Shown here piece by piece: positions 11 through 59,767 of a DNA stretch of 64,000 nucleotides (the first letter of the stretch is position 1; every line of letters begins with the position of its first letter). Source of the stretch: an uncultured bacterium (lineage in GTDB: Bacteria; Patescibacteriota; Microgenomatia; UBA1400; UBA12108); NCBI GenBank assembly GCA_903945195.1, contig CAJAUT010000013.1, positions 11,473-75,472 on the forward strand, read 5' to 3'. The position numbers and the translations under genes were made by a program. The notes under the pieces are model-generated. The model was not told the DNA's origin. It made no database searches and saw nothing but the letters and a program-made list of their open reading frames with translations.

Positions 11-52
11 ACCTGCCCGCAGTGCTTACAGCACAGCTGTTGCAGGCGGGTC
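11..52. repeat. 42-nt repeat, exact copy of 58399..58440 (flanking similarity extends to position 2)
   Basis: Direct comparison of the two stretches; a diverged third copy lies at 16887..16924. Confidence 0.8.
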
Positions 53-10093: not shown

Positions 10094-11765
10094 GACTGCC
10101 TATCAACTGAAGCAACTCCTTGTCGCGCCAAACATTTATATCGATCGTACAAATAGCAGAAATTAAATGAGTCAGAGGATAGTCCAGCTTTGTATTAAAG
10201 AGCATAAGCTGACGAGTTTCACCATCCTGCTCTACCGTTAGCTTCCTGTGTTTACCACTACTGCCCAGCTGTTTGTCTTCTAAGACTTTTAAATTTTCGA
10301 AATAAAATTTGGGCTTTTGATTGTGCATACCAAAAGGCTCCATAGTAGAGATGAGTTTGGCGAGCTTGAGACTGGTAGAAGAAAGATCTAACTTTAGATC
10401 GGCAAAGTGAGTTTTTACCAGCAATTCATCTGTGATTTTTTTGTCTGCCAAAGCCTCTAATTCTTTAGTCATAGCTTTTACATTTTTTTTGTCGAGACTA
10501 AAACCTGCGGCTTGGTCATGACCACCCAGACCAAGGAAAGGAGTCTTGAGCGATCTAAGTAAATCAGTGATACTGACACCATTGACTGAGCGCGCTGAAC
10601 CTTTGATCACCTCTCCGTTATCGCTCATGACGATTGCTGGCTTGTTGTACAACTCTGCGAGTTTGCCGGCTACTAGTCCTATGACGCCTTCGTGATAATC
10701 ACCGATGATGACAATGATTTTGTGCTTGGCTTTTAGAGCAGCTACTGACTGCAATGCACTATCTGTATATTCTTGCCTATCTTTGTTGTGCGACTCTATT
10801 TTTGCAGCCAGCTCTTTGGCTTGTTTAGTATCTGAAGTACAAAGGAGTCGTAGAGCATCGAGTGGATTGTAGATACGGCCAGCTGCGTTGATGCGGGGAG
10901 CGATGCCAAAACTAATGTCATAGGTTGAGAGATCTTTAGCTCCTACACCCATTGCTTCTTTCATAGCGACGAGTCCTGGACGCTTGGTACGGGTAAGTGC
11001 AAATAAACCTTCTACGCAAATAGATCTATTTAAACCAACTAGTGGCATCATGTCTCCTACTACGCCTATCGTGGCTAGATCAACTAGGCGGATAGCAGCA
11101 TCACCTAGGAGATACATAGCAAAGATCCAGGCTACGCCCGCTCCTGAGGTGGCAGTCGTGTGCACGATGGCAGTTGCTTCTGGAAGAACTGATTCTGGGA
11201 GATGATGATCGGTGATAATCGTATCTATGCCAGCTGATTTAAATGTCGATATACCCACGTGGGCCACAATGCCTGTATCGACAGTGATGATGAGCTTGGG
11301 GCGATAACCTTTCAAGCTAGTGTGACTGAAAGCCTCGCCACTGACTACCTCAGCTACTGCTTTGTCCCCTAGGCCGTAACCATGTTTGTGACGATCTGGC
11401 ATAAATGGGAGGATGCGAGAGGTAGATTTTTGGAGCTTGGCGTAAGCGGTGATGGCCTGCCACATGATAGCGGTAGAGGAGACTCCGTCGGCGTCGTAAT
11501 CGCCAAAAACACAGATATCGGAAGATTTCTCTAGATGCGAGTCTATGAGCTTTTTGGCTTTATTTAAAATGGATTTTTTAAGACCTGATTCGTGCAAGAG
11601 ATAATCTAGATCTGGGGCAACTGGGTGCAAAAACTCTTCTTTTTGAACTTTGGTCTTGTATCCCCTACTCTCCATGAGAGTGTCAAAGATATCTTTGGCG
11701 GTAGCACCCTCTTCTACTTTGGTTTTGAGCTTGATGTCCATATTAATTTGTTCGGATAAAATCAA
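10080..11765 (-). CDS. recJ: single-stranded-DNA-specific exonuclease RecJ
   Basis: DHH family motifs (GDYDADG, ITDHH). Confidence 0.8.
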   Translation of the reverse strand: MILSEQINMDIKLKTKVEEGATAKDIFDTLMESRGYKTKVQKEEFLHPVAPDLDYLLHESGLKKSILNKAKKLIDSHLEKSSDICVFGDYDADGVSSTAIMWQAITAYAKLQKSTSRILPFMPDRHKHGYGLGDKAVAEVVSGEAFSHTSLKGYRPKLIITVDTGIVAHVGISTFKSAGIDTIITDHHLPESVLPEATAIVHTTATSGAGVAWIFAMYLLGDAAIRLVDLATIGVVGDMMPLVGLNRSICVEGLFALTRTKRPGLVAMKEAMGVGAKDLSTYDISFGIAPRINAAGRIYNPLDALRLLCTSDTKQAKELAAKIESHNKDRQEYTDSALQSVAALKAKHKIIVIIGDYHEGVIGLVAGKLAELYNKPAIVMSDNGEVIKGSARSVNGVSITDLLRSLKTPFLGLGGHDQAAGFSLDKKNVKAMTKELEALADKKITDELLVKTHFADLKLDLSSTSLKLAKLISTMEPFGMHNQKPKFYFENLKVLEDKQLGSSGKHRKLTVEQDGETRQLMLFNTKLDYPLTHLISAICTIDINVWRDKELLQLIGSHVEI

Positions 11766-15919: not shown

Positions 15920-16660
15920 TTATATAGTTGTTAAATATCCACCATCTACTGCGATAATTTGTCCTGACATGCTATCATTTTTTGCGACCATCAAGCAGGC
16001 TTCTGCAACATCTTCTGGTGAAACCCATTTCTTTGTAAGAGTAGTAGCTAACAATTCAGTCTCATCTTTTGTATTCATGTCATCCCAAAATCTGGTCTTG
16101 GTGAAACCAGGAGCGATTGTATTTACTAAAATAATTGGGGCAAGTGTTTTGGATAGTGATTTGGTGAAACTATTTAGACCTGATCTTGCCATGGAAAATG
16201 GTAGTACTGATCCACAACCACTGATACCACAAATTGAAGAGATGTTTACTATCCTGCCTCCGCCATTTTTTAACATGAGCTTAGCTGCTTCCTGGGCGCA
16301 GTAAACCATACTAAAGATATTTAGTTTGAACTCACTGATCAAGTTCTCCTGAGTTATATCAAAGAATGAAACTTTTTTTGCTAACCCAGCATTGTTGATT
16401 AAAATATCTATCTTTTCGTATTTTTCTACTATTTTAAGAAACATTTCTTTTACTTCAGTTGGATTTGAGACATCAGCCTTTATAGCTATGGCCTCTCCAC
16501 CATCGCTTTTGATATCGGAGACTAGTTTTTCTGCATCTTCTGAACTATTACTATAATTAATGACAACTTTAGAATGTTCTGCTGCAAACATGAGCGAGAC
16601 TGCTTTACCTATACCCTGACTTCCGCCCGTAACTAAGACTATCTTATCCTTGAATATCAT
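15920..16660 (-). CDS. short-chain dehydrogenase/reductase (FabG-like)
   Basis: TGGSQGIG NAD(P)-binding motif 8 aa from corrected start, NNAG motif, catalytic Y...K region; the track's 5' extension to 16726 runs antisense through the RNase P RNA. Confidence 0.75.
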   Translation of the reverse strand: MIFKDKIVLVTGGSQGIGKAVSLMFAAEHSKVVINYSNSSEDAEKLVSDIKSDGGEAIAIKADVSNPTEVKEMFLKIVEKYEKIDILINNAGLAKKVSFFDITQENLISEFKLNIFSMVYCAQEAAKLMLKNGGGRIVNISSICGISGCGSVLPFSMARSGLNSFTKSLSKTLAPIILVNTIAPGFTKTRFWDDMNTKDETELLATTLTKKWVSPEDVAEACLMVAKNDSMSGQIIAVDGGYLTTI

Positions 16661-16687
16661 AAGATTATTATACACTCTGTTATAATT

Positions 16688-17002
16688 CTCTTGCCTTGGG
16701 TAGGTGGATAGTCGGGCTGGTCGCAAGATCAGTCAGGAAAGTCCAGACAGCAGAGTGCAGGGTGGGTAGCGCAAGCTATCACGGGTAACCGCTAGTTTAG
16801 AGCAACAGTGACGAATCCCTTTAGTGGGAGTGAAACGGGCAATCCTCCCCGCTGCAACCGACGAATTTGGCCATGGGACGCACTCCCCTGCCCGCATTGC
16901 TACGCGCAAGCGTTGCAGGCGGGTGAGCCATAAAGTTTGCGGGCATTAGAGAAATGATTATCTTAAAAACAGAATCTGGCTTATGCCTACCCAAGGCAAA
17001 AT
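16688..17002 (+). ncRNA. rnpB: RNase P RNA (bacterial type A-like, reduced)
   Basis: P1 helix ttgccttgggtagg/cctacccaaggcaa; P4 strands AGGAAAGTCCAGAC and ACAGAATCTGGCTTAT; GCAGGGTG, GGTAACCG, GAGCAACAGTGA, GGGAGTGAAACGGG motifs in canonical order; P3 with GCAA tetraloop. Confidence 0.8.
16887..16924. repeat. diverged copy of the 42-nt repeat embedded in a peripheral (P12-like) helix of RNase P RNA
   Basis: cctgcccgca ...16-nt related spacer... ttgcaggcgggt matches the ends and order of the repeat at 11..52 and 58399..58440. Confidence 0.55.
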
Positions 17003-17005
17003 AAA

Positions 17006-17584
17006 CTAGTTTGAGTTCAATGCTTTCTCTAATCTTTGATATTCATCTCGGAATTTATCTTGATTAAGAGTTAGGATTCCAAACGATTGAAGCCTACTAT
17101 CTTTCTGATATTTCGTAATCACACCCAGGACATCAAATATACATCCTGGATAATCTCTGGTATTACCGGTAATCACACATGCAACTCCAGACGAGTAGGT
17201 CATGAGCCTACCAGCAAGGAACAAGTCAACTAGACTAGCGTGCTTACCAGCATCTCCATTAGAATGCAGAGCATAAATTTTAGATAAAATAAAAGCGTTA
17301 TCCTGAATTTTAACAAATATCTCTTGGTTTCTAGATACTGGAGTAAATATTTCGCTCTTAACAAATTTGTCCATTTTCACAGCTTCTTTTGGAGAAGTCA
17401 CGCTACGGGAAAACTCAAATTCTATTAGTGGATCAATCATAGGATAGGAAAATCCATATACCAGACTCGTGAACTGAGAAAATAGATCTTCGTCTTTGTA
17501 AATCTCATTTAGAAAATCAGAGTCTAGGAAAAGATATTTAGATGTTATATGTTTTTGTAAATCTGGACTTATTATCGTTGTCAT
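17006..17584 (-). CDS. PIN-like domain protein (putative VapC-like RNase), atypically long
   Basis: YLFLDSDFL (beta1 Asp), DNAFILSKIYA, ITGNTRDY motifs in PIN order; 4-nt start/stop overlap with the upstream small ORF. Confidence 0.35.
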   Translation of the reverse strand: MTTIISPDLQKHITSKYLFLDSDFLNEIYKDEDLFSQFTSLVYGFSYPMIDPLIEFEFSRSVTSPKEAVKMDKFVKSEIFTPVSRNQEIFVKIQDNAFILSKIYALHSNGDAGKHASLVDLFLAGRLMTYSSGVACVITGNTRDYPGCIFDVLGVITKYQKDSRLQSFGILTLNQDKFRDEYQRLEKALNSN

Positions 17585-17787
17585 ACGACTATATTTGGCC
17601 GGGCACTGGAAGCATATTCTTCACGAATTTTTCTTGCGCTAACGATAATCTCTGTCATTTCCTTGATTATTTGTGCTTTTGATTTTTTCATGACAGGTTT
17701 TGGCAATTTAATGCTAGTTTTTCTACCTAGATATGGTTTTAGATTTGGAAAGTTGGTCATATACTTATAATATACACTTTCTGTCAA
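17581..17787 (-). CDS. small basic protein, putative cognate antitoxin-like partner
   Basis: 59-68 aa, ATGA overlaps on both sides; no motif. Confidence 0.3.
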   Translation of the reverse strand: MTESVYYKYMTNFPNLKPYLGRKTSIKLPKPVMKKSKAQIIKEMTEIIVSARKIREEYASSARPNIVV

Positions 17788-56640: not shown

Positions 56641-57441
56641 TTATTTAAGAAAATTTTTCTTAGTGACGATGGATTTGCCTAGGCGGGTTTCTAGAGCTGT
56701 GCGGGCGTCGCCAGCGATCTTGCCACCAGCCACAGCATCAGATTTGAGTTTTGGATAACCTTTTGAGTCCTCGGTACGATGGATCTCGGTAGTGGCGCGC
56801 TCGCCGAGCATGGTAAAGATGAGCTCAAGATCGTCCATGTGGTCACGGAGATTTTGATGTTTGAGCGATTTGATCTTTCGATATTCGCTCGGCGTCACTC
56901 CAAAAGTAGCTTTGCTGATCTCGGCAGTTAAAATCTCATATTCTCTACCCTCGTTGGCTCCGCGGTCCTTCCACTCTTGTGTTAACTCTTCCCGAATTGC
57001 GATGCCACGCATCCTTTTCTCGATCCAACTGTCTGGATACCCCTTGGCTTTATATAGTGCTCTGGTGCGCTTGGTGGCAAGCTCGGGGTCTTCGATCTCC
57101 TGAATCCGCTCGTAGCCAACTTTTGCAAGCCAGCGTTTGAAAGGCTCGGCTTTTGGTGAAGGGATGGACTGGATGATGCGAAAAATACCTTCTGTATTTG
57201 CACAAACAATATTTTGCACTCCGCCGGCAGTTTTGATTGGAAGGGGGTGTTCAATTTGAACCCACCCTTTGAATAACTCTTCATCTCGATTTAACATGTT
57301 CTGGAGATATTGCTTTGGGTTTTGTGAATCAGTTAATGCAGCAATTACATCAACAATCACAAACCACCATTCATTTTTATAAATAGTTTTTCGAATTTCT
57401 TTTTGATGGAAGATGGCTATACGAGTCTCTGAGTCTGTCAT
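56641..57441 (-). CDS. Bro-N domain / DinD-like (DNA-damage-inducible protein D-like) protein; ATG 57441 preferred over TTG 57459
   Basis: N-terminal Bro-N-like pattern (IAIFHQKEIRKTIYKNEWWFVIVDVIAAL); C-terminal similarity to E. coli DinD (NLRDHM..EL...E...). Confidence 0.5.
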   Translation of the reverse strand: MTDSETRIAIFHQKEIRKTIYKNEWWFVIVDVIAALTDSQNPKQYLQNMLNRDEELFKGWVQIEHPLPIKTAGGVQNIVCANTEGIFRIIQSIPSPKAEPFKRWLAKVGYERIQEIEDPELATKRTRALYKAKGYPDSWIEKRMRGIAIREELTQEWKDRGANEGREYEILTAEISKATFGVTPSEYRKIKSLKHQNLRDHMDDLELIFTMLGERATTEIHRTEDSKGYPKLKSDAVAGGKIAGDARTALETRLGKSIVTKKNFLK

Positions 57442-57461
57442 ATTTCCATGATCCCCCAATG

Positions 57462-57532: not shown

Positions 57533-58678
57533 GTGCAAGATAATTTTAGAATGTTAAATGGGCAGACACTGCCATATCCACTGTTTTTCCCGGATGCTAC
57601 GAGGGGTGAGGTAAGACAGCTGACATTTGAGGATGTAAAAATGGTTGGGTTACCAGGGATACTCGTAAATACCTTTCATCTACTGAGACTAGTGGGGACA
57701 GAGAAAACCGTGGCAGCTGGTGGAATACATAAATACCTGGGATGGGACGGCGCTATGATATCTGACTCTGGAGGATTTCAGGTAATGTCGATCGCCAAGA
57801 AATATGGGGGAAACAGCACTGTGACGGATGAGGGTGTGACATTCACTCTCGACGGCATTGATCATCATTTCTCCCCCGAAGATTCAATTAAATATCAGAT
57901 GGCGATGGGGACTGACCTAATGGTGGTGCTAGATGACTTCACCCCACCGGATGCCACACATGAAGAAGCGGAGGTCACGGTAAATAGGACGACACTTTGG
58001 GCAAAGAGATGTAAGGAAGAATTCAACAGGCTGCAAAGTTCCGATCACTCGCCTAAAATCACGCAAGGATCGGAACTAGGGAACAAAAGACCTTATCTGA
58101 TTGGGGTGGTACAGGGAGGAGAATACGAAGACCTGAGACTAAAGAGCATTAAAGAGCTGATGGAAATTGGGTTTGATGGGTACGGTTATGGAGGATTCCC
58201 CATGAAAGATGGGAAATTTGATGAGGCAATGGCAAAGTTTATGGCGGACAATTTGCCAAAAGATACCGTATTGTATGGCCTAGGAATAGGTAAACCAGAT
58301 GATATTGTGAAATGCGTGAACCTAGGATGGCAGATATTTGATTGTGTCCTACCAACAAGGGACGCCCGCCACGGACGGCTTTATGTATATACCAATGAAC
58401 CTGCCCGCAGTGCTTACAGCACAGCTGTTGCAGGCGGGTCGATTCAACGGATCAATGTGCAAAAAGATGGATTTTATGAATATTACAACCCTAGACAGGC
58501 GTTACATCTCGAAGAAACTGGGCCGGTTAGTAGTGCGTGTGATTGCGAACTGTGCACGAGTTTGAGCCGCAAAGAATTTGCTACCATGTGGAGAGCGCGA
58601 GATGAAAAAGTGCTGCGACTAGCCACGATCCATAACCTTAGGTTTTATGCGATACTGATGGAAAAATTGAGGAAATGA
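57533..58678 (+). CDS. tgt: queuine tRNA-ribosyltransferase (GTG start with GGAGGA Shine-Dalgarno)
   Basis: DSGGFQ, LMVVLDDFTPP, VQGG, GFDGYGYGG, FDCVLPTRDARHG, CDCELC...H zinc site; about 28-aa lineage-specific insertion before the zinc site. Confidence 0.8.
   Translation: MQDNFRMLNGQTLPYPLFFPDATRGEVRQLTFEDVKMVGLPGILVNTFHLLRLVGTEKTVAAGGIHKYLGWDGAMISDSGGFQVMSIAKKYGGNSTVTDEGVTFTLDGIDHHFSPEDSIKYQMAMGTDLMVVLDDFTPPDATHEEAEVTVNRTTLWAKRCKEEFNRLQSSDHSPKITQGSELGNKRPYLIGVVQGGEYEDLRLKSIKELMEIGFDGYGYGGFPMKDGKFDEAMAKFMADNLPKDTVLYGLGIGKPDDIVKCVNLGWQIFDCVLPTRDARHGRLYVYTNEPARSAYSTAVAGGSIQRINVQKDGFYEYYNPRQALHLEETGPVSSACDCELCTSLSRKEFATMWRARDEKVLRLATIHNLRFYAILMEKLRK
58399..58440. repeat. 42-nt repeat, exact copy of 11..52, in-frame inside tgt (encodes EPARSAYSTAVAGGS)
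   Basis: Direct comparison. Confidence 0.8.
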
Positions 58679-59003: not shown

Positions 59004-59767
59004 TCACAAAACTAGATTGGGAAATGATAATTCAAGATTTTCGTTGATTTGACGACCGGTGAGGCGATATACCTTATAGCCGAGACCATAGAGATATTGA
59101 TCTTTTCTCTTATCTCTAATCTTACTTTGAGGTCGTAAATGCCAAAACTCGCCATCGCACTCGATAATTGTCTTTGTGCCGGTGAGTAAAAAGTCGGCTC
59201 GATATTTGGCAAATTTCACTTCCTGTTGAAATTCAATGTGTTTACTCTCGAGATATTTACGAACTTTTTCTTCGAGAGATGACTCGCCATTGAATTTGAT
59301 AAAACATTCCCGCGAGCAAAATTTGCCCCTTCCGGTATTGATCACCGAATTAGGAATGGTAAATTCCTGATGACAATTGGCACACTTTTTGGTGACAAAC
59401 TCTGACATACCAAGGTCGTGACATTTTTTAGAACAGTATATGGTGTGAACGGCCACGGCTGGTGAACGCTTTACTGCCTTGCCACACTGTTGACAAATTT
59501 TAGTGACAAGATGATCTCTGTTTACTTTGTTCTGGCACGTGCGTCTGCAATAAATTCCGAATCCGTGGCGAACTTGGGTGGGCGATGGGATAAATGTCTT
59601 TTTACAGATAAACATCTCTTTTCGAACTTTAATCTTGTCGAGTTATGGTAACAAGGAAGCGAGCAATAATTGGTTGGTCGGACAAGATATGGCATTTTTA
59701 TAAAATCTTTACCACATCCATCACATTTAACTTGTTCTCTATATCCAATGGGACTGACTTTACGCAT
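59004..59767 (-). pseudogene. frameshifted gene: N-terminal tandem Cys4 zinc-ribbon repeats plus C-terminal DUF559 (Vsr/PD-(D/E)xK-like) endonuclease domain
   Basis: ORFs 59522..59767 and 59004..59615 overlap out of frame; a 1-nt deletion near 59612 restores a continuous K-x-C-x2-C-G-K-x-F...Y-C-S-x2-C repeat; YRADFLLTGTKTIIECDGEFWH matches the DUF559 core. Confidence 0.5.

Follow-up and report, generated by a model that had tools for sequence, protein, structure and literature searches.

How does the same 42-nucleotide (nt) sequence come to stand both inside and outside a protein gene, and a related sequence inside a structured RNA, within one stretch of bacterial DNA? The question is raised by 64,000 nt from an uncultured, ultra-small bacterium of the Patescibacteriota lineage UBA12108 (GenBank assembly GCA_903945195.1, contig CAJAUT010000013.1, positions 11,473–75,472), a stretch that we call the window. 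The 42-mer, ACCTGCCCGCAGTGCTTACAGCACAGCTGTTGCAGGCGGGTC, lies within tgt, the gene of queuine tRNA-ribosyltransferase, and at the beginning of the window, and a diverged copy is located in the gene of the RNase P RNA (rnpB). The repeat very probably belongs to a family of mobile palindromic elements. The best explanation of its movement, to which we give an even chance, is that a widespread family of short, G+C-rich, pseudo-symmetric palindromes with precise insertion is coupled to a GIY-YIG nuclease of about 80 residues; the nuclease would cut the DNA, and repair would copy the palindrome into the break.

Element copies in tgt and in the RNase P RNA gene are clean insertions

The 42-mer is free of mismatches at positions 11–52 and 58399–58440, both on the forward strand, and no chance match is expected in shuffled sequence. 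The pattern of its arms, CCTGCCCGCA-N(5–35)-TGCAGGCGGG, matches three times in the window, where none is expected. The third match bears out an earlier note on this DNA, which had placed a third copy in the RNase P RNA gene: that copy has the same 10-nt arms. Comparison with empty sites in relatives defines the extent of the element proper (Table 1), and the extra A and TC of the 42-mer are flanking nucleotides that match by coincidence. The G+C content is 67% in the element and about 43% in the window. No further diverged copies were found with an nhmmer profile of family members in the window and a 10-kb extension of the contig. The similarity of the upstream flanks had been put at 11 of 14 bases; in fact, 7 of the 10 bases inside the window match, and 8 of 14 do after extension of the contig. 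About 0.9% of random 14-mers from the window match the flank equally well.

Table 1 Features of the element, its host genes and the adjoining cassette. Positions refer to the window unless another frame is given; L001 is the contig extended beyond position 1 of the window.
Feature	Position	Strand	Remarks
Element copy 1	12–50	+	39 nt; intergenic; splits the duplicate of the tRNA-Gln(CUG) 5′ end
Element copy 2	58400–58438	+	39 nt; same sequence as copy 1; in frame in tgt
Element copy 3	16887–16923	+	37 nt; same arms, differing interior TTGCTACGCGCAAGCGT; in the RNase P RNA gene
tRNA-Gln fragment, second half	2–11	−	TGAAGTGGTA, tRNA nucleotides 11–20; direct repeats
tRNA-Gln fragment, first half	51–60	−	TGCGGGATGA, tRNA nucleotides 1–10; preceded by the native upstream flank of the tRNA gene
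GIY-YIG gene, 82 residues	L001 11218–11466	− (of window)	adjoins the window edge
tRNA-Gln(CUG), intact	L001 11457–11528		seen in the extended contig
tgt, queuine tRNA-ribosyltransferase, 381 residues	57533–58678	+	host gene of copy 2
rnpB, class-A RNase P RNA, reduced, without P13/P14/P18	16696–16998	+	85.9 bits; host gene of copy 3
Helix A of the element	alignment columns 11–14 with 18–21		pair 11–21: AU 20, UA 9, GC 7; 20 double-change cells
Helix B of the element	alignment columns 16–19 with 23–26		pair 16–26: AU 21, UA 11, GC 4; 15 double-change cells

The copy in tgt is read in frame as PARSAYSTAVAGG, as the earlier note had proposed. It is a clean insertion between GAA and TCG that added 39 nt (13 residues), with no target duplication and nothing lost. 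In an alignment of 120 proteins, made of the window's Tgt and 119 homologues, PARSAYSTAVAGG occurs only in the window's own protein, and relatives with 84–91% identity read ...YTxE|SIxxI... at the insertion point. The empty site is visible at the DNA level in the 87% identical relative L210, which reads TATACCGATGAA|TCGATTCAAC, and the element is absent from the DNA of both closest relatives fetched. A Tgt insertion of about 28 residues, described previously at this place, is real in so far as the protein has about 28 residues more than solved Tgt structures at this hairpin. However, the element accounts for only 13 of them, and the rest are conserved in all 120 homologues.

The rnpB gene gained exactly 37 nt, between CACTCC and TGAGCC. 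The rnpB intergenic regions of four relatives (L203, L204, L206 and L207), fetched via the neighbouring 192-residue protein, are all without these 37 nt and read GCACTCC|TGAGCCATAAAG. The four insert-free relatives rule out that the insert is a native RNase P helix. The conserved downstream sequence TTTGCGGGCA was considered as a remnant of the element and rejected, because it is native RNase P sequence. According to a covariance-model alignment of L204, the insert is located in the P16/P17 arm, on the 3′ side of the tiny P17, and not in P12, where it had been placed before. It remains true that a peripheral, insertion-tolerant part of the RNase P RNA received the insert. Folding of the RNA with and without the insert, which had been proposed as a check, showed only that the insert pairs with itself, since a minimum-free-energy fold is uninformative for a pseudoknotted RNA.

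Comparison of the whole window with Rfam at the gathering score gave no match. A permissive Rfam scan of positions 16000–17600 identified RNase P only (85.9 bits, compared with the gathering score of 100), together with chance microRNA matches on the hairpin. The RNase P RNA of this lineage stays below the Rfam threshold even when free of the insert (94.7 bits in L204), and is therefore overlooked by standard annotation. On the 5′ side of the insert (16869–16886), the window reads CATGGGACG, which is diverged and shorter compared with GATAAAGACAGTAG in the four relatives. It seems that the hairpin arrived first and that the native P17 was remodelled later.

The copy at the window edge splits a tRNA fragment next to a nuclease gene

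The surroundings of the edge copy were obtained from the ENA contig ERZ27313463 k141_185855 (L001), in which position 1 of the window corresponds to position 11212. The open frame previously assigned to this copy is a 34-codon stretch from stop to stop without a called gene, and the copy is intergenic. The minus strand reads TGCGGGATGA, the element, TGAAGTGGTA, GGGAGT, the ATG of an 82-residue open reading frame (ORF), and then TGCGGGATGATGAAGTGGTATCATGCGAC, which belongs to an intact tRNA-Gln(CUG). A 20-nt duplicate of the tRNA-Gln 5′ end is thus interrupted by the element, 17 nt before the start codon of the ORF; this codon lies just outside the window on the minus strand.

In the relative L226, whose DUF8173 protein from the neighbouring gene is 91% identical, the intact tRNA-Gln comes directly after the upstream flank known from L001, with no ORF and no element. 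This empty site, TGCGGGATGATGAAGTGGTATC, identifies the nuclease gene as an insertion after nucleotide 20 of tRNA-Gln. The old 5′ end of the tRNA and its native flank remain in front of the ORF, and the duplicated 5′ end rebuilds the tRNA behind it. In the more distant L227 and L228, an intact tRNA-Gln(CUG) is located right after the DUF8173 gene and no GIY-YIG gene is called. The cassette is therefore polymorphic, present in L001 and missing from L226, L227 and L228. All three element copies of the window have empty sites in relatives, and the element inserts cleanly.

The 42-nt identity and the partial similarity of the flanks could also mean that the edge copy is a fragment of a duplicated tgt, as considered in the earlier note, or an artefact of assembly. 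However, the edge flanks beyond the element are tRNA-Gln sequence and not tgt. The edge arrangement was found again in an independent ENA assembly, the GIY-YIG protein is present on ten contigs, and the same Tgt protein on four. A tgt fragment is refuted by the extended contig, and the probability of either a fragment or an artefact is negligible.

Another independent assembly of the edge locus, the Logan contig L002 (6995 nt), ends 59 nt past the DUF8173 gene, at the element, which is consistent with a repeat that breaks assemblies. A zeta-toxin gene follows tRNA-Gln in L001 and is absent from L226. A second small GIY-YIG gene, 39% identical to the first and 3 kb away from it, is located between KilA-N and Bro-N genes (L001 14409–14648), with neither a tRNA gene nor an element alongside.

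The element family is widespread and tolerated within genes

The segments in tgt and rnpB are absent from 119 Tgt homologues and four RNase P RNAs, and the arms occur elsewhere: the arm pattern was found in at least 120 other stretches of species-representative genomes, comprising at least 127 elements, where a rough estimate of the chance expectation is 34 matches. A minority of the matches, from high-G+C genomes and with unrelated interiors, look like chance matches. According to the record titles of the matches listed, the hosts are mostly Patescibacteria of many classes, along with Verrucomicrobia, Kiritimatiellia, Lentisphaerae and some genomes labelled Gammaproteobacteria. The spread of the family and the empty sites of relatives support the earlier idea of a short dispersed element which enters protein genes without breaking the frame and structured RNAs at places that tolerate it. 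We found no description of the family in the literature by sequence string, family name or topic; the coverage was incomplete, and an earlier description is possible.

Among the matches listed, the elements are 30–55 nt long, with peaks at 36 nt (45 copies), 39 nt (21) and 32 nt (16). We regarded a copy as read through if the frame that contains it stays open for 150 nt or more to either side. Lengths that are multiples of three were found in 32 of the 42 read-through copies and in 49 of the 85 remaining copies listed. The commonest in-frame reading is PARNASHSDAGG. Some elements are nested one inside another (L026, L034, L095 and L115).

A few copies with lengths that are not multiples of three interrupt ORFs, which are restored by excision of the element in silico, in L033 (from 159 to 813 nt), L115, L060 and L106. 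Occasional disruption of genes fits a mobile element. Such restored ORFs, and the stability of the hairpin (the insert folds on itself with −18 to −20 kcal/mol), are what may be expected if the repeat acts at the RNA level, as a small intron-like segment removed from transcripts or as a regulatory or terminator hairpin that arose repeatedly. However, most copies in ORFs, that in tgt among them, keep the frame and are read through; the element occurs in either orientation with respect to genes and the cassette, and it has no match in Rfam. The interrupted ORFs are few, which is expected of any mobile element, and equivalent helices can form on both strands, as described below. We regard a role at the RNA level as very improbable, and for the tgt copy the intron reading is ruled out by its reading frame and the missing Rfam match.

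The arm pattern was also found in 15 viral contigs. The element-bearing contigs from IMG/VR (L212–L225) have a G+C content of 51–69%, and one of them contains four copies. Viral contigs are a possible route of the element between phyla.

Both strands of the element are probably constrained

The structure was analysed using 47 distinct 36-mers. Compensatory changes support two helices in the interior, A and B (Table 1). None of 500 shuffles reached the observed values for either helix, and slid registers scored far lower. Because both helices use columns 18–19, they cannot coexist on one strand. A plain full-length hairpin register for the interior was ruled out, since the pair 11–26 shows no co-variation. 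Positions 3 and 30 of the arms change together, from T-A to A-T, in three variants. The consensus differs from its reverse complement only by transitions, at four symmetric pairs of positions, and the element ends with CCTG on one strand and CCCG on the other. We infer that the two strands are both under constraint and that each can fold into a hairpin of about 12 bp with 4 nt left over as a tail. The likeness of the two strands points to recognition at the level of DNA rather than to a function of RNA.

A hairpin with a 4-nt tail on each strand resembles repetitive extragenic palindromic (REP) sequences. The element could be REP-like and travel as a DNA single strand by the action of a Y1 (HUH) transposase that is encoded elsewhere in the genome and resembles the REP-associated tyrosine transposases (RAYTs) or that of the insertion sequence (IS) IS200; the GIY-YIG cassette would then be no more than a favoured harmless landing site. 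Transposition of the IS200/IS605 type typically produces no target duplication, in agreement with the insertions of the element, and a Y1_Tnp gene adjoins tgt in the closest relative, L208. However, this gene bears its own, unrelated GTAG-type hairpin, and a tblastn search with its product found no homologue in the window or the other fetched loci. The element has no conserved GTAG head, its flanks have no conserved target tetranucleotide, and its association with GIY-YIG genes persists in a sample selected by protein, described below. A RAYT was rejected as the partner of the element, since the single Y1 gene seen in the loci examined comes with another REP; movement by a Y1 transposase is improbable.

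The Y1_Tnp of L208 (3237–3752) is a RAYT/IS200-like protein of 162 residues, encoded just downstream of tgt, and the hairpin that flanks its gene reads GGGCGACC-gtaaa-GGTCGCCC-CTAC. Gene and hairpin are a classical REP/RAYT pair, distinct from the window element.

The palindrome is linked to a cassette of nuclease and tRNA genes

The arrangement at the window edge recurs in other genomes. Among the loci selected by the element, a GIY-YIG homologue with 57–67% identity starts 13–53 nt from the element in L081, L084, L071, L026 and L108, and lies no more than 250 nt from it in three further loci. Where the available sequence suffices, the order is the 5′ fragment of a tRNA, the element, the rest of the D-arm, the ORF, and the intact tRNA (Gln, Met or Asn).

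Selection bias was removed by a second set of loci, chosen by protein. Metagenome contigs were searched with the alignment of GIY-YIG proteins; at least 600 candidates were obtained, 514 of which encode a relative. We used the best 80 of the 514, and 76 of the 80 loci could be evaluated. A tRNA gene on the same strand is located directly downstream in 58 of the 76 loci (a tRNA was counted if it starts −7 to +98 nt from where the matched ORF segment ends), and these tRNAs have 13 amino-acid identities. The window's element family is present within 150 nt upstream, in either orientation, in 28 of the 76. Any G+C-rich palindrome with 10-bp arms was found in the 130 nt upstream in 53 of the 76, in comparison to 3 of 66 control windows. 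In loci with a known downstream tRNA, a copy of that tRNA from about −6 to +25/30 is interrupted by the palindrome at positions 6–21, most commonly at 10/11, 18/19 and 21/22. The uninterrupted 32-nt tRNA fragment of L165 indicates that the formation of the cassette and the insertion of the palindrome are separate events. The type of palindrome varies with the nuclease: the window's family accompanies 22 of 32 nucleases that are at least 62% identical to that of the window, and 6 of 44 less similar ones, most of which have palindromes with variant arms. A functional link of some kind between the element and the nuclease is probable.

The element may also have spread without a dedicated enzyme, by host recombination or template switching during replication, with an intrinsic preference for D-arm-like sequences. 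Elements would then accumulate in the tRNA fragment of the cassette only on account of its dispensability, and the nuclease would be uninvolved. This is consistent with elements in whole pseudo-tRNAs (L012 and L124), with the many copies distant from any GIY-YIG gene, and with the cassettes that have no palindrome. However, the arms are kept base for base across phyla while the interiors vary in a compensatory manner, which argues for a conserved factor that recognises them. Moreover, the palindrome subfamily follows the nuclease subfamily, and the 25–30-nt tRNA fragment bears a palindrome in about 70% of cassettes. We consider spread without an enzyme unlikely.

The pseudo-tRNA genes, for Asn in L124 (1755–1950) and for Val in L012 (5200–5480), stand beside intact copies and have the element in the D-loop. 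The pseudo-tRNA of L012 contains a second palindrome in its anticodon loop. The same locus has a variant layout, with the order intact tRNA, GIY-YIG gene and 3′ fragment of a tRNA. In the tRNA-Lys cassettes (L162, L183, L196 and L199), the tRNA begins 73–89 nt past the ORF and is directly preceded by GCGGGC or GCAGGC, which suggests that the palindrome is located between the ORF and the tRNA and not upstream of the ORF.

The cassette protein is a GIY-YIG catalytic domain alone

The ORF of the window's cassette encodes no more than a GIY-YIG catalytic domain (PF01541, 57 bits), and the cassette proteins, 78–85 residues long, have no separate DNA-binding domain. Residues Y16, R26, H30 and E62 are invariant in the alignment of cassette proteins; the catalytic residues are thus kept. 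The closest solved structures are those of the UPF0213 proteins 1zg2 (E=1.8e-14) and 1ywl, followed by the structure-specific endonuclease SLX1 (about 1e-5). Searches of NCBIfam and PHROGs provided no useful name for the nuclease. To our knowledge, the bacterial UPF0213 proteins have solved structures and no assigned function.

Proposed mechanism of element insertion

The interiors of the element differ between genomes, and yet no difference separates the window's tgt copy from its cassette copy. L124 has identical elements at one and the same position of the D-loop in the cassette fragment and in the neighbouring pseudo-tRNA-Asn, and near-identical copies are present in L126. The empty tgt site, read in the orientation of the tRNA (GTTGAATCGA|TTCATTGGTATA), matches the tRNA-Gln site (TGCGGGATGA|TGAAGTGGTATC) at 11 of 22 positions (empirical p=0.009, from the window), and the empty rnpB site matches it at 10 of 22 (empirical p=0.027, likewise). 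With respect to the element, both sites are oriented as in the cassette. The resemblance of the tgt and rnpB sites to the tRNA-Gln site is suggestive, not conclusive.

The comparisons show a mobile element with clean insertion, a nuclease cassette that has itself entered tRNA genes, and a tight linkage of the two; on this basis, a mechanism can be proposed. The nuclease gene is inserted in tRNA genes after about nucleotide 20–30, and in almost every case the palindrome interrupts the left-behind 5′ fragment in the D-arm region. The nuclease may cut the D-arm of tRNA genes or D-arm-like DNA, perhaps in a structure-specific manner on extruded or transcribed DNA. Cuts would fall on the dispensable tRNA fragment and, now and then, on similar sites like the ones in tgt and rnpB. 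Repair would then copy the palindrome from the cassette copy into the break via short flanking homology. Insertion would destroy the cut site and leave clean junctions, and the palindrome may protect the leftover fragment from further cutting, or the ORF from loss mediated by the repeats. Templated repair of nuclease breaks would account for three features: copies identical in sequence, a fixed orientation and no target duplication. We give slightly less than an even chance to breakage by the nuclease, and consider it rather doubtful that the cassette copy serves as the template of repair. As part of the explanation as a whole, whose chances we put as high as those of its failure, elements would survive at sites that tolerate them: surface loops of proteins, with the frame kept, a peripheral arm of RNase P RNA, and non-essential fragments of tRNA genes.

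Several observations weigh against this explanation. The target resemblance comprises two sites with modest p-values, and the microhomology on the right of the tgt site is only about 6–8 nt long. Cassettes without a palindrome, such as L165 and L182, indicate that the palindrome is unnecessary for the formation of the cassette. The orientation of the element relative to the tRNA varies between cassettes and its insertion point spans tRNA nucleotides 6–21, so that no single cut site is implied. No GIY-YIG gene is present in the examined stretches of the element-bearing viral contigs. The evidence that links element and nuclease is one of position, and their co-variation by subfamily could be explained by shared genome ancestry. 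Finally, a protein of 80 residues with no DNA-binding domain is unlikely to be a sequence-specific enzyme by itself.

Other inserts in tgt and its neighbourhood

The window's tgt contains a second, unrelated palindrome of 41 nt (58037–58077), AGTTCCGATC...GATCGGAACT, with perfect 10-bp arms. It is in frame and encodes SSDHSPKI.... The 91% relative L208 shares this palindrome, and the 87% relative L210 lacks it; the gene has thus received two different hairpin inserts. Four non-adjacent Tgt homologues (P0002, P0034, P0050 and P0105) share an insert of seven residues (LPRGKAG, LPLGKAG or LPRRQAG) at one site, six residues downstream of the position of the window's element. In the DNA of L208 (around 2690–2710), this insert is a 21-nt mini-palindrome, CCTGCCTCGCGGCAAGGCGGG, with arms like those of the window's family. 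It is either a truncated relative of the element or the sign of a hot spot. Further sporadic inserts occur at other sites of Tgt homologues: SFDSAQDLR in six proteins, PPSLRRGGASEG in three and NGRTRGSAPT in at least five. They look like translated G+C-rich repeats of other families, and the proteins of this clade seem to be peppered with short inserts.

The tgt gene is flanked by genes on the minus strand for a Bro-N domain protein (56641–57459) and for a protein with a zinc finger and a DUF559/Vsr-like endonuclease domain (59004–59615). In relatives, the slot downstream of tgt is occupied by a DUF559 gene (L210) or by the Y1 transposase gene (L208), and it is a variable spot for selfish genes.

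Comparison with known systems

Rickettsia palindromic elements (RPEs) are palindromic repeats of about 100–150 bp in Rickettsia and its close relatives, which occur in frame in protein genes and also in RNA genes; we know of no enzyme that mobilises them. The earlier note had likened the repeat to RPEs, and the likeness holds for behaviour: the window's family, too, is found in frame in ORFs (13 residues added to Tgt) and in an RNA gene (37 nt added to rnpB), and is kept where it is tolerated. It fails for size and host range and probably for sequence: the window's family is 30–55 nt long, presumably unrelated in sequence, hosted, according to record titles, by Patescibacteria and by bacteria of the Planctomycetes–Verrucomicrobia–Chlamydiae (PVC) group, and linked to a cassette of GIY-YIG and tRNA genes.

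With the REP/REPIN elements, which are associated with RAYTs, the family shares short imperfect palindromes in many copies, a repeat located beside a single-copy nuclease gene, and subfamilies that track the enzyme. In contrast, REPs have a GTAG or GTGG head, whereas the window's family ends with CCTG/CCCG. REPs are extragenic, whereas members of the window's family are inside tgt, rnpB and, among the matches listed, 42 long open frames. The partner of REPs is a Y1 HUH transposase, whereas the neighbour of the window's family is a GIY-YIG-only protein encoded in a tRNA gene. Unlike miniature inverted-repeat transposable elements, the element has no target-site duplication at tgt or rnpB, the two sites compared in this respect with empty ones. 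The loci examined, which are parts of genomes, showed no transposase-bearing IS with matching terminal repeats that could be its parent.

SegB of phage T4 is encoded by a free-standing GIY-YIG homing endonuclease gene in a tRNA gene cluster. The cassette gene resembles such genes in its location among or within tRNA genes, in its presence or absence between relatives and in its catalytic residues, which are kept. However, Seg proteins and I-TevI possess a DNA-binding domain of about 100–150 residues, whereas the cassette protein is a catalytic domain alone. We know of no palindromic satellite element of Seg or I-TevI. With the UPF0213 proteins, SLX1 is one of the nearest relatives of the cassette protein among solved structures. 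Its substrates are branched DNA and hairpins, such as palindromes extrude; it differs in working with SLX4 in eukaryotic repair.

The G+C clusters of yeast mitochondria and the double-hairpin elements of fungal mitochondria are short G+C-rich palindromes in an A+T-rich genome, optional between strains. The G+C clusters are inserted in intergenic DNA, in rRNA genes and in frame in coding genes, and some classes leave short target duplications. The window's family is likewise short, G+C-rich, palindromic, in frame in genes and built of two hairpins. It belongs to another domain of life, has unrelated sequences, and is associated with a tRNA-gene cassette, which the clusters are not.

Implications

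Essential genes of genome-reduced bacteria, tgt and that of the RNase P RNA, accept recent insertions of hairpins. Such inserts affect the calling of genes, the detection of RNA families, as rnpB below the Rfam threshold illustrates, and the assembly of contigs. The tRNA-gene cassette deserves a description of its own as a compact selfish arrangement: the old 5′ end of the tRNA stays in place, the ORF of the nuclease is added, and the tRNA is rebuilt behind this ORF. We know of no mobilising enzyme for RPEs or mitochondrial G+C clusters; the window's family has a strong candidate partner, which falls into the UPF0213 family. We tentatively suggest, while thinking it somewhat less probable than the contrary, that minimal UPF0213/SLX1-like GIY-YIG proteins are partner nucleases of palindromic insertion elements, in parallel to RAYTs and REPINs. 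The nuclease gene would home into tRNA genes, ride on their promoters and restore the tRNA, and its palindrome would be seeded into D-arm-like sites of proteins and ribozymes in Patescibacteria and PVC bacteria. If this is true, it would provide a function for the UPF0213 proteins and explain the sporadic short inserts in the proteins of these bacteria.

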